The notes: generated from the letters alone by a model not told the origin. A stretch of DNA of 64,000 nt from Escherichia coli 042 (GCF_000027125.1 NC_017626.1), one strand, 5' to 3'. Positions 59,120-64,000 are shown, numbered from the stretch's first letter. Made by a program: numbers and translations.

Positions 59120-60190
59120 TTAGCGTACAATCTCAATTGTTATCGTTGCAGTCGCGGTAAATGTTCCTGGCGCGGGGCGAGCCCCCGTGAGGCTTGCAGG
59201 AGCAGCAGAAAAAGTGACGCTACCGGCTTTTTCACCAAAGACGTTTGATTTACCCATATCTGTCGGCAGTTCACCACCGTTAACGTTGATTTCCTTATTA
59301 TTTTTATCATAAATTTTTATCCCAACGTTCGGGTTTGATGTCACGACCATTGAGTTGTCAGTACTGGGTTCGGTAGCATAAAAAGAGGTACTGATATCAT
59401 CAGTATTTAGTATTCCTAAATTTTCACACTCAATGGTGACGGTTTTGGTAATTTTATGCGTTGTCACGGTACTTCCAGCTACCGAAGAAAAATCTGCTGC
59501 AGGAATTTCTTTAAAATCAAAATTAATGGGTCTTAAACTGTTAATTTCACAGCTTTGCGGTGCAGTGATATCGCCACGAATATAAACATCCGCCATAGGT
59601 TGTGAGTAATCAACCGGAGTGTCACGGCTTATAGTTCCGTACAATTTTGCCACGAGAGTTTCAGGGACAATTAACTTTCCAGCAAAAGTCTTCTTAATAT
59701 AAAAATAAATTATTGCTTTTGCACCACTGGAAATACTTAATGGGTCCGTGCGACTACATTTATATGAACCTCCAGTAGGCCTGTTAGCATGGTATTCAAA
59801 AGGTGCATTAATGTATCCTACACCGAGAAGGTCTATCGATATTCCAACATCCAGATTAGGATTCAAATTAAAGTAGTTTACATTAGAACGAACACCCGCA
59901 TAACTTAAGGCCTCGTTTATTCTCGCTGTATAGTAAATATAAGGAAACTCCCCCACTTTCCCTGTATCACAATGGCAGTGAGCAGGATAAGAGTCCCCAT
60001 TTGTCACGGTTTTATTAAAGGTCTCTCCCACTCTGTTCTCGTCTGCCGTAATCAGATAGCCGGAAAAATCAAGTGTGCTATGAAAGGCCCCATTATCTGA
60101 GGTGCAGATACCTTTTGGGGCCGCAAATGTTGCACCACTAAAGGAGAAGATAAAAACAGTCAAGCACCACTGTATAATATACTTGTTCAT
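59120..60190 (-). CDS. Fimbrial tip adhesin / minor subunit (LpfD-like)
   Basis: 356-aa ORF with signal peptide, last gene of a chaperone-usher cluster. Confidence 0.7.
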   Translation of the reverse strand: MNKYIIQWCLTVFIFSFSGATFAAPKGICTSDNGAFHSTLDFSGYLITADENRVGETFNKTVTNGDSYPAHCHCDTGKVGEFPYIYYTARINEALSYAGVRSNVNYFNLNPNLDVGISIDLLGVGYINAPFEYHANRPTGGSYKCSRTDPLSISSGAKAIIYFYIKKTFAGKLIVPETLVAKLYGTISRDTPVDYSQPMADVYIRGDITAPQSCEINSLRPINFDFKEIPAADFSSVAGSTVTTHKITKTVTIECENLGILNTDDISTSFYATEPSTDNSMVVTSNPNVGIKIYDKNNKEINVNGGELPTDMGKSNVFGEKAGSVTFSAAPASLTGARPAPGTFTATATITIEIVR

Positions 60191-60200
60191 AAAAATCCTT

Positions 60201-62732
60201 TTAATGACATGTCACACCTTGTTCAATTAAGCCGCTTTCACTTTCTGGTATTGAAAGTGAATAATCGAAGGTGCATGTAGTGGCGGCATTTTCCCCCCAG
60301 GAGAGCATCACTTGCCCCTTTTCAGGAAGGCCGGAGAGATAAAGCTCCCCCAGGTCACCGACAATCCCTGAATCAGCAGAGCTTGTATTTTGTACGGCAG
60401 CAATAGCGCCAAAAGGTGCTGGCTTACCTTTTGCATTCACCACTTTGAAGAGTACGCGATAGCCCACGTGGGTAACAAATTCTGCTTTAACCACCGCGCC
60501 ACGGGTGGGAACCATCGTAACGACGGTATTATCAAGTTCTATATTCGACTTCGAGAAATAGTTATCGCTGATTGCTACCCGGTTTTCATCATAAGGGTTT
60601 AGCTGTGTCTTGACCGTATAACCACGCCAGTCCGTCGCAGCACCACGCATATTGTCTATTTCTAACCCGGCAGCCCCTGGTGCTTTAACAAGAGCTATGG
60701 TTTCACCCAACTCCTGGCTTAACGTTACGCCTTCGCTGTGAGCCAGAATTCCCCCTCTGATACCATAATTCAGCCTCTGAGAATTTTGGCTGTAGTTATA
60801 GCTGCCGTTCACCGTGCCATAAGTGCCATAAGTGCCATCATAGGTCAGGGACATATTACCGCCAACCTCATCATCATGGCTGTTATAGGACTGCATTAAA
60901 TTCCAGGAAAGGTTATTTCTTTCCAGCGCCGTACCGCTGAGTCCAAGTTGATGTGAGCTACCGGAATTATCGTTTTGCGATACAGAATAGGTGGCGTAAC
61001 TATTCCCCCACCAGCCCGATAAAGGAACAGATAAAGAGAGCATGTAGATCTGCTCACTGGTGTTATCACTGGCATTGTTGTTCCCCGTCCCCTGCCGGGC
61101 AGTATTGGAATAACTCCAGGAGACGTTCCACGAGAGACGCTTCCAGCTACTGCTGTAGCCAAATTGCATTAATCGTTCAACATCATCGGTATGCCAGTAC
61201 TGCTGGCGACTTAATGTCAGATATAAGTTGCCATAATCTCTGCCCAGTGATTGCGTTAACGTTCCTTCCACACGGCTGCGGCGGTTACCGGTTTCCCAGA
61301 AATCTTCAGGATTATTACGCCGGGACGCCCATTCATTGAGGGTATAATAACCTTCGGTGGAGTAACGATAGCCAACCAGGCGCAAGCTGGTATCCGTATC
61401 GTCAAAGCGTTTCGAGTACAGGAAGCGATAAGACTGACCGGTTTCCGTATCATCATGGCTAAATTTCGCGCGAGCATGTGTCACATCGAAAGAAATTGCG
61501 CCCAATGCGCCAAGATCTTTACCGACACCCAAAGCGGCAGAACCATACTTTTCAGCAGCCTGCATACCTCCATATAAGGTGAAACCGTAGGGAAAACCAT
61601 GAAGGATCTGAGCCTGAATAACGTCAGGGGTAAAGCCATCTTCATCGCGTAATTCTCCCACACTGACATCAACATCAGTTTGACCTTCACGTTTGAGGAT
61701 GGCTAACGACGCATAAGGTTGAGTAAATCGTTGTTCGCTACCGTCTTCTTCTTTGATGGTTACGTCCAGATCACCACCTGTACTGGCGGTGTTGAGATCG
61801 GTAATTTCAAAAGCACCTTGTGGAACGGCTGACTGATAAATCACGTAGCCATTCTGGCGAATAATGACAGTGGCGTTAGACTTTGCAATCCCACGCACTA
61901 CGGGGGCAAATCCGTTTTGGCTGGCAGGCAACATATCGTTATCGGTATACAAGCGTGCGCCACGAATTTGCGTACTGTCGAAGATATCGCTCGCCGTCCA
62001 CGTATCACCTATCATAATCTGGCTTCTTAACGCAGCTATATCACGTTGTATCCAGGTGCTTATAGAGTTGTATTCTGCACTGCCATCGGTCGTATTTAAG
62101 GTGCTGTAATTGCGTAATCGCCACGGCCCAATATTCAGTCCATTGCGCAGATTGAGATAACTGGTATCTGTCTCTTGTGAACCATAATCCGAACGTAGAG
62201 TATGTGAACCAGAAAAATCGTAGTTGATGGTGAGCGCGTTAATCCCCTCATCCCAACGCGAGGGGCTGATGTAATCATAAGCCATCGCATCCATATAGAT
62301 TTGGGGAATGGAGATATTCAGTTGCAGTTTATCGCTGTCGAACTGCCATGATGAGCCTTCAATGCGTGGCCCAGGATCAATACAGACTGTTTCATCTACA
62401 TCATTGAGCGATTTCAGCGCATCAACTTTTACGCCAAAGGTGGTTAGCGTTTTTTTAATAGCGACAAAGCAGGCGTGTAAATCAGCATCGGGATTATCCT
62501 GAACAAAGGTCACATCCTGACGTTCAAACATTTTACCGTTGATAAAAATATCAACGCTATAAACACCTGGGGGCATCAGGTTTGCCCGATTAAACTGGCG
62601 AATATCGACTCCGGATTGATGGTCGATTTCCAGAAGCGCCGGATTGAATACACTGACCTCGGCCATCAGGCTTTGCGAGAAAATCAGACACGTCCCTGCC
62701 GTGAGGCCAACCTTTATTCTGGTCGTCATCAT
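60201..62732 (-). CDS. Fimbrial outer-membrane usher (LpfC-like)
   Basis: 843-aa ORF with signal peptide and the size and composition of FimD/PapC ushers. Confidence 0.88.
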   Translation of the reverse strand: MMTTRIKVGLTAGTCLIFSQSLMAEVSVFNPALLEIDHQSGVDIRQFNRANLMPPGVYSVDIFINGKMFERQDVTFVQDNPDADLHACFVAIKKTLTTFGVKVDALKSLNDVDETVCIDPGPRIEGSSWQFDSDKLQLNISIPQIYMDAMAYDYISPSRWDEGINALTINYDFSGSHTLRSDYGSQETDTSYLNLRNGLNIGPWRLRNYSTLNTTDGSAEYNSISTWIQRDIAALRSQIMIGDTWTASDIFDSTQIRGARLYTDNDMLPASQNGFAPVVRGIAKSNATVIIRQNGYVIYQSAVPQGAFEITDLNTASTGGDLDVTIKEEDGSEQRFTQPYASLAILKREGQTDVDVSVGELRDEDGFTPDVIQAQILHGFPYGFTLYGGMQAAEKYGSAALGVGKDLGALGAISFDVTHARAKFSHDDTETGQSYRFLYSKRFDDTDTSLRLVGYRYSTEGYYTLNEWASRRNNPEDFWETGNRRSRVEGTLTQSLGRDYGNLYLTLSRQQYWHTDDVERLMQFGYSSSWKRLSWNVSWSYSNTARQGTGNNNASDNTSEQIYMLSLSVPLSGWWGNSYATYSVSQNDNSGSSHQLGLSGTALERNNLSWNLMQSYNSHDDEVGGNMSLTYDGTYGTYGTVNGSYNYSQNSQRLNYGIRGGILAHSEGVTLSQELGETIALVKAPGAAGLEIDNMRGAATDWRGYTVKTQLNPYDENRVAISDNYFSKSNIELDNTVVTMVPTRGAVVKAEFVTHVGYRVLFKVVNAKGKPAPFGAIAAVQNTSSADSGIVGDLGELYLSGLPEKGQVMLSWGENAATTCTFDYSLSIPESESGLIEQGVTCH

Positions 62733-63488: not shown

Positions 63489-63535
63489 AACGACTCCCTG
63501 GCCAAAGCCAACTGAATAAAAAGGCCCTTGATAAA

Positions 63536-64000
63536 TTATTTCTTATATTCGACAGTAAATTGTGAATCGGCGTTCGCCGTACCCGCCGTTACAGTTGCAT
63601 TGGTTGCCACATAGCGTGCAATAAACTTCATTTCAGCCTTGCCTTCAGCGTCGATAGCGGTATAGGCAGAATCGTTATAAAGTTTAACCTGCGAGTTATC
63701 TGACTGGTTAAAAATACGAATACCGACACCCGTTGCCGCAATCGCTTGTCCTGTACCGGTAAAATCGCCAGGGTTGCCCGCTGTAAGCGGCGTACCCACT
63801 TTCAGGTCGCCGTCGCCGCCAGGCGCTTCTGTACCATCAAAACGAACGGCTGCCTGAGTGTAGGTTGCCGGGCACTTTTCAAGTTTAATACTGAACTGCT
63901 GTGGTGACGCCAGACTACCTACACCTGAAAAAGCATTTTTACTGACTTTACCCAGTGGTACGGTTTGATCGGCTGTATCGGAGGTAACTTCACAAGTAGT
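63536..64000 (-). CDS. Fimbrial major subunit (LpfA-like), N-terminus beyond the window end
   Basis: The reading frame stays open upstream of the track's GTG at 63797 through position 63952 (checked codon by codon), so the gene is truncated by the window; C-terminus ...SQFTVEYKK is typical of type-1-class pilins. Confidence 0.75.
   Translation of the reverse strand, partial: TTCEVTSDTADQTVPLGKVSKNAFSGVGSLASPQQFSIKLEKCPATYTQAAVRFDGTEAPGGDGDLKVGTPLTAGNPGDFTGTGQAIAATGVGIRIFNQSDNSQVKLYNDSAYTAIDAEGKAEMKFIARYVATNATVTAGTANADSQFTVEYKK

Follow-up and report, generated by a model that had tools for sequence, protein, structure and literature searches.

The lpf operon next to pstS

In a stretch of 64,000 nucleotides of DNA from Escherichia coli 042, referred to here as the window, a group of four fimbrial open reading frames (ORFs) follows pstS on the minus strand and is cut by the window end. 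Very probably, 5.0 kb at the distal end of the lpf-O113 operon (lpfA-lpfB-lpfC-lpfD', alias E. coli stgABCD; 5.4 kb in all), a chaperone-usher cluster located between glmS and pstS, make up this region. The operon is already known and is a common accessory fimbrial operon, ordinary except for the rarer version of its tip adhesin. Unless another locus is named, coordinates are positions within the window (Table 1); the beginning of the pilin gene and the glmS side were read from near-identical genomes.

LpfB, LpfC and LpfD' over their whole length, as well as the 154 residues of LpfA encoded in the window, were 100% identical to RefSeq proteins and to the proteins of strain Yu5. The RefSeq names of the identical proteins are LpfA-O113, LpfB-O113 and LpfC-O113, while the fourth is named only 'fimbrial protein'. 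A megablast search with positions 58900-64000 against 5,426 complete E. coli genomes, which also served as the set for the surveys given below, yielded full-length matches at 99.7-99.9% identity, annotated as lpfA-, lpfB- and lpfC-O113 plus 'fimbrial protein'. The pstS side of the location is contained in the window, and the glmS side was taken from these genomes, the identity extending over 5.1 kb. In strain Yu5, which is 99.9% identical to the window, the genes are arranged in the order pstS, fimbrial protein, lpfC, lpfB, lpfA (573 nucleotides), glmS and glmU. Over 5.1 kb the window departs from Yu5 at five bases only; the non-coding tail contains three of them (59032, 59053 and 59109, the last within the stem of a hairpin) and lpfD' two, both synonymous (59267 and 59591). 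The number of public contigs bearing the exact protein sequences of the window ranged from 49, for the usher, to 1000 or more, and the closest matches of the operon came from human, animal and environmental isolates.

Table 1. Features at the lpf locus. Positions refer to the window, except in the last row, where they refer to loci of other strains.
Feature	Coordinates	Strand	Basis or remark
pstS	57832-58872		neighbour of the fimbrial ORFs
Two sites taken as pstS-promoter Pho boxes	58961-58978 and 58939-58956	minus	core DNA common to K-12; alignment of window, K-12 and Sakai
Non-coding distal tail of island	58978-59119	minus	K-12 homology ends at 58977
Hairpin, 12-bp stem	59085-59113		directly after lpfD' stop; folding, -22.7 kcal/mol, z = -3.3
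lpfD' (stgD-like), two-domain tip adhesin, 356 aa	59120-60190	minus	Pfam, 5AFO match, AlphaFold model
lpfC-O113, outer-membrane usher, 843 aa, intact	60201-62732	minus	Pfam, RefSeq identity
lpfB-O113, PapD/FimC-like periplasmic chaperone, 243 aa	62757-63488	minus	Pfam, NCBIfam, FimC alignment
lpfA-O113, major fimbrial subunit, 3' part (codons 37-190 and stop)	63536-64000	minus	Pfam, NCBIfam, RefSeq identity
Decayed genes at the lpf site in other strains	L004 6621-7004; L005 10302-11374; L006 10298-11372; L008 1592-2140

Chaperone, usher and major subunit

The initial annotation, made from the window alone, had described a partial pilin, a chaperone, an usher and an adhesin-like protein on the minus strand after pstS. 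All four ORFs were found in place, with Pfam matches far beyond chance. The four genes follow in the order A-B-C-D', both in the window and in Yu5, with neither an lpfE nor a second lpfD. They are separated by gaps of 47, 24 and 10 nucleotides, and each of the three starts inside the window (lpfB, lpfC and lpfD') is preceded by a Shine-Dalgarno sequence, which reads GGGAG upstream of lpfB and AAGGA upstream of lpfC. The Pfam family Fimbrial was matched by two window proteins (E values of 2e-22 and 5e-22).

LpfB matched Pfam PapD_N (4.5e-38) and PapD_C, scored 534 bits on NCBIfam NF011818 (cut-off 317) and was identical to WP_000088124.1. It could be aligned over its full length with FimC (6E14_C; E 1.9e-40), R45 and K150 standing opposite R8 and K112 of FimC, so that the conserved subunit-anchoring arginine and lysine of PapD-like chaperones are retained. 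In LpfC, the Pfam domains PapC_N, Usher (1-549 of 549, E 1.4e-184) and PapC_C were all found in one ORF, and the protein scored 674 bits on the model of the FimD subfamily. A frameshifted usher and a locus other than lpf had been named at the outset as possible objections to the assignment; neither was found, the usher being free of frameshifts and 100% identical to WP_000989198.1, and the locus being that of lpf.

The lpfA frame, with its stop at 63536, is open to the window end over 154 codons, so that the earlier statement of an open frame to at least 63952 was conservative. As had been anticipated, the start of the operon and its promoter are located beyond the window. Full-length LpfA comprises 190 codons, and its start was located in Yu5 and in the near-identical locus L001 at the equivalent of 64108, i.e. 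108 nucleotides past the window. In L001 these 108 nucleotides encode the signal peptide and an N-terminal donor strand, GVVHFVGEIVDTTC, which is FimA-like, and the DNA that precedes lpfA is very rich in A+T. The part of lpfA past the window is expected to start with ATGAAGCGTAATATTATAG. LpfA matched Pfam Fimbrial (5.4e-22), scored 313 bits on NCBIfam NF011817 (cut-off 203) and was 100% identical to WP_000827811.1, 'LpfA-O113'. In strain E2, lpfA was shortened to 182 amino acids. An attenuating stem-loop was sought in the spacer between lpfA and lpfB, but nothing beyond shuffled controls was detected there (z = 0.25).

Relation to other fimbrial operons

The lpf-O113 operon is said to have been described by Doughty et al. 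in 2002 from STEC (E. coli that produces Shiga toxin) O113:H21 negative for the locus of enterocyte effacement (LEE). The Stg fimbriae of E. coli (stgABCD), reportedly described by Lymberopoulos et al. in 2006 from the avian pathogenic E. coli (APEC) strain chi7122, are said to be encoded by the same operon. The operon of the window is likewise located between glmS and pstS, has the same order of four genes and carries the LpfA-, LpfB- and LpfC-O113 names, closeness being judged against the RefSeq-named proteins. It departs from the lpf-O113/Stg operon in its tip adhesin (83% identity) and in mismatches to the lpfA2-1 primers. In the adhesin literature the lpf-O113 type is also called E. coli Stg (PMC11184843, PMC6383257).

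As the initial annotation had noted, the content of this site differs from K-12, in which pstS and glmS are separated by a spacer of only 313 bp. Among the 5,426 genomes, the K-12-like empty spacer was present in 3,066 (56%), the lpf-O113 type in about 1,970 (36%) and the O157 lpf2 type in 355 (6.5%). An 'lpf' locus at pstS-glmS can thus be one of two unrelated-looking types, next to an empty state, which makes it advisable to name the type, O113/Stg in the present case.

The lpf2 cluster of O157:H7 (O-island 154, OI-154; ECs_4665-4670 in strain Sakai) has its insertion site and gene family in common with the window operon, as well as a related hairpin just downstream of glmS. An lpf2 cluster of this kind, with the lpfA2-2 allele and five genes including a duplicated lpfD, is nevertheless a vanishingly improbable identity for the region. 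The Sakai cluster has lpfA, lpfB as a pseudogene, an usher gene and lpfD twice, five genes in all as against four in the window, and the amino acid identity between the two is only 39-69%, with 55% for A, 56-69% for B, 63% for C and 39-42% for D. The lpfA2-2 and OI-154 primers, both exact on Sakai, had no site in the lpf region of the window and gave approximate matches only in unrelated parts of it. The RefSeq names also differ, being lpfA2 in the one case and lpfA-O113 in the other. The initial annotation had assigned the operon to the location of the lpf2 island of strains resembling enterohaemorrhagic E. coli (EHEC). The location and the lpf names stood, since the site is the same as that of Sakai lpf2, but the type had to be changed to O113/Stg (42-63% amino acid identity to O157 lpf2 in this comparison), the usher and the pilin both having their best hits in lpf-O113. 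The EHEC-like character was not borne out, as nothing shows the strain to be EHEC-like and the operon type is found in more than a third of the complete genomes.

The shared name might also suggest an orthologue of the canonical lpf1 operon (lpfABCDE) of Salmonella Typhimurium and E. coli. Both operons belong to the type-1-like chaperone-usher group, and LpfD of the adherent-invasive E. coli strain LF82, which comes from an lpf1-type five-gene operon, was the best structural match of LpfD' (PDB 5AFO). The two proteins have the same two-domain fold over their whole length, but they are only 26% identical. On the equivalog models of the Salmonella LpfABCDE proteins (NF011756/55/54/53/52), the four window proteins scored far below the cut-offs (LpfA 69 against 221, LpfB 137 against 360, LpfC 739 against 1271 and LpfD 135 against 412), and the window operon has no lpfE. 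Moreover, lpf1 is located at a different chromosomal site. An orthologous relationship with lpf1 is therefore extremely improbable, and 'lpf' is, as judged by these scores, a historical name for the window operon, which is not an equivalog of Salmonella LpfABCDE. A further known system is stgABCD of Salmonella enterica (S. Typhi Stg), for which the same synteny, glmU-glmS-A-B-C-D-pstSCAB-phoU, was seen on one Salmonella enterica contig; its identity to the window proteins is 64-68% (A, B and C) and 44% (D). The best NCBIfam match of LpfD' was StgD (NF011819), at 228 bits and below the cut-off of 493.

Allele typing of lpfA

The lpfA2-1 allele corresponds to the O113:H21 type and lpfA2-2 to the O157 type (PMC4636846; PMC3417533). 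For typing in silico, the lpfA-O113 primers of Doughty were taken from PMC4343011 and from the supplement of PMC5962669, and the lpfA2-1 primers (scheme of Torres et al. 2009) from the supplement of PMC5962669. Both lpfA-O113 primers found exact sites, that of the reverse primer at window positions 63536-63553 and that of the forward primer in L001. The lpfA2-1 primers did not fit: the forward primer showed two substitutions in the window and the reverse primer three mismatches, including the 3'-terminal base. On the B1-type loci L005 and L008 the lpfA2-1 primers matched with the expected product of 207 bp, the only misfit being an extra A in the published forward primer. Thus, typing of the lpfA allele, as suggested initially, placed the gene with lpfA-O113, while the lpfA2-1 and lpfA2-2 primers both misfitted. 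The window DNA of lpfA was at least 99% identical in 372 genomes, and its identity to the B1 allele that is common was about 95%. It represents a sub-allele that would probably be missed by the lpfA2-1 polymerase chain reaction (PCR), which is widely used, and yet be positive in the lpfA-O113 PCR. Disagreement between the lpfA2-1 and lpfA-O113 assays in surveys, that of PMC5962669 among them, may be due to this primer misfit.

In the supplement of PMC5962669, the lpfA2-1 forward primer is given as GGTAAGTCTGG..., with one A more than all genomes examined, which read GGTAGTCTGG...; the additional base probably arose when the table was transcribed. The designation 'lpfA2-3' in PMC4636846 denotes primers placed at the 3' flank of lpfA2 and not the allele lpfA2-3 of Torres et al. 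2009.

The tip adhesin LpfD'

LpfD' is composed of a signal peptide, an N-terminal receptor-binding domain (residues 24 to 200, approximately) and a C-terminal pilin domain (203-353), the latter being the only part covered by Pfam Fimbrial. The mature N-terminus (APKGIC...) is devoid of a donor strand, which fits a subunit that is incorporated first. A sequence search matched residues 35-354 to 5AFO with an E value of 2.9e-25. The AlphaFold model, built from 37 sequences, reached a predicted local distance difference test score (pLDDT) of 89, and 5AFO was also its top Foldseek match (template modelling scores of 0.78/0.80 over 339 columns); it was followed by the two-domain tip adhesins CupB6, CsuE, PapG and FimH.

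Compared with the B1-type LpfD-O113, LpfD' was 83% identical overall, with 76% in the first 260 amino acids, 92% in the remainder and 76-80% in the receptor-binding domain. The DNA of the N-terminal domain of lpfD was bimodal across the genomes: 462 were at least 95% identical to the window, and about 1,509, which are named lpfD-O113, were approximately 77% identical. By this distribution, LpfD' belongs to a separate class of alleles, the less common one, within the same gene. In a protein search, the LpfD alleles of Escherichia formed a series of clusters, including E. whittamii and E. fergusonii at 79-81% identity, and relatives at 41-53% identity in Salmonella, Pseudocitrobacter and Enterobacter. 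It is conceivable, although we put this forward only tentatively and regard it as rather doubtful, that LpfD' constitutes an unnamed class of tip adhesins, probably obtained by recombination from a divergent Escherichia lineage, and that it may bind another host receptor than the O113/B1-type adhesin, so that two adhesion specificities would be merged by current typing. If this is true, strains scored as 'lpf-O113-positive' fall into two adhesion specificities.

Divergence and selection

Rates of synonymous (dS) and nonsynonymous (dN) substitution were determined against strain E2, which carries a B1-type operon. The dS value was 0.09 for pstS and climbed along the operon from 0.18 in lpfA and 0.23 in lpfB to 0.47 in lpfC (0.15 to 1.0 per 100 codons) and 1.44 in lpfD, where it was saturated in the N-terminal domain; the value of lpfD is about 16 times that of the neighbouring pstS. 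In all four genes dN/dS stayed between 0.03 and 0.07, i.e. the operon is under purifying selection. Protein identity to B1-type operons was 98% for LpfA, 96% for LpfB and 95% for LpfC. Along the usher gene, blocks of 100 codons with dS of about 0.15-0.23 alternated with blocks of about 0.9-1.0, a mosaic pattern that suggests repeated intragenic recombination. Taken together, the substitution patterns characterize the alleles of the lpf operon as old, under purifying selection and reshuffled by recombination. Positive selection was also considered as the source of the adhesin divergence and was rejected, dN/dS being 0.03-0.06 with saturated dS. The split between the two versions of the adhesin, at a dN/dS of about 0.03, is an old one.

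The operon might instead have arrived recently as a mobile island, such as a Tn7-like or integrase-borne element inserted at the glmS attachment site. The operon is absent from K-12 and from the genomes with an empty spacer, the G+C content drops to 38-42% over lpfD', and the island adjoins glmS (the attTn7 region). However, no genes for mobility (transposase, integrase) were present among the ORFs of the island, and a search for repeats over 58700-64000 gave just short pairs such as chance would produce; flanking repeats, whether direct or inverted, terminal repeats and duplications were all lacking at the edge of the island. In Salmonella, this site holds four genes in the same arrangement, and all 1,985 matches lay on chromosomes, the median being one place in each genome. 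The ancient mosaic alleles agree with a replacement of alleles in which the conserved flanks served for homologous recombination. Recent acquisition on a mobile element is thus considered very unlikely.

Assembly and function

Expression and assembly of the lpf operon, as well as recognition of a receptor, may be envisaged by analogy with other chaperone-usher systems. The four products would be exported by Sec, and LpfB would cap each subunit through donor-strand complementation. The LpfC usher would then take LpfD' first and polymerise LpfA beneath it by donor-strand exchange, and the product would be a fibre with an adhesin tip, attaching to host epithelium or matrix. An adhesive role is in keeping with published work on related alleles, in which an lpfA2 mutant of O104:H4 showed reduced adherence to polarized Caco-2 cells (PMC4636846), and Stg is cited as contributing to attachment to human and avian cells (PMC12547504 and PMC6383257). 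The assembly logic, the FimC-like chaperone and the FimD-like usher are in common with type 1 fimbriae (fimAICDFGH). In contrast to these, the window island is devoid of the FimF/G adaptors, of FimI and of the phase-switch recombinases, and the score on the FimH equivalog was 59 against a cut-off of 472.

Several points weigh against an lpf-O113 operon that is intact and engaged in adhesion in strain 042. LpfD' is too distant from the reference LpfD-O113 to be so named by RefSeq, and we know of no receptor for either lpfD allele. The window lacks the promoter and the first 36 codons of lpfA, so that their intactness in strain 042 is taken from near-identical genomes. Fimbrial operons of this kind are often silent in the laboratory. 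Decay has also occurred at the site in relatives, with the lpfB pseudogene in O157 Sakai and frameshifted lpfD genes in O111:NM 2010C-3053 and in a Gambian isolate.

The genes might accordingly be intact and the operon nevertheless silent, a decaying remnant with no current role in adhesion. Pseudogenes at the locus in other lineages, a truncated lpfA in one strain and the AT-rich promoter region would be in line with such a remnant. So would two observations from the literature: the lpfA2 mutant of O104:H4 had only a partial phenotype (PMC4636846), and the role of Stg in gut colonisation by STEC was described as unclear (PMC12547504). On the other hand, all ORFs of the window are intact, and their exact proteins recur among public contigs in the numbers given above. 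The low dN/dS values in spite of deep divergence show that selection has kept the proteins. A silent remnant is, on balance, unlikely, and an intact lpf-O113 operon with a putative role in adhesion is preferred.

Within the operon, variation is greatest in the adhesin gene, which is often a pseudogene in other lineages. Due to this variability and decay, the presence of stgA-C or of lpfA alone says little about adhesive specificity.

Island limits and non-coding elements

Homology between the window and K-12 extends from pstS to 58977 and is taken up again about 413 bp past the window, with the stop codon of glmS; a segment of 5,436 bp thus stands in place of 206 bp of K-12 sequence. The junction of the island abuts the distal one of two sites which we take, from established knowledge of the pstS promoter, to be its Pho boxes.

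The hairpin directly after the lpfD' stop is possibly a terminator or an insulator ahead of the pstS promoter. It was graded as only a possible terminator, since it was found by folding alone and its stem has no adjacent T-run. A scan for consensus terminators detected nothing behind either lpfD' or glmS. When 57500-64000 was searched with Rfam at a permissive E value, the single match, which was sub-threshold and to a eukaryotic small nucleolar RNA, was regarded as noise.

In L001, a hairpin rich in G+C precedes a T-run (GGGCTGCC...GGCGGCCCTTTTTT) just after the glmS stop, at 11475-11503 and about 370-400 bp past the window. This hairpin is common to the lpf-O113 and the O157 lpf2 islands, while the K-12 sequence differs there. 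The insertion point of attTn7 lies just downstream of glmS. As the sequence following glmS is unlike that of K-12, this point sits in a different sequence in lpf-carrying strains.

Other segments of the window

Two further segments of the window were noted. A 2.6-kb segment between mnmE and tnaC (35136-37755) is absent from Yu5 and was found in 769 of the 5,426 complete genomes. On its minus strand it contains an ORF (35284-37464) for a protein of 726 amino acids resembling type III effectors of the ShET2/EspL2 family (Pfam Toxin_15, 6e-48). Between yieH and phoU (46993-53886), three large ORFs foreign to K-12 were observed, where strain E2 has bglG adjoining phoU instead. They encode proteins of 818 amino acids (annotated in Yu5 as the type III secretion system effector EspY4), 395 amino acids (pentapeptide-repeat protein) and 839 amino acids ('hypothetical', with weak pentapeptide matches).

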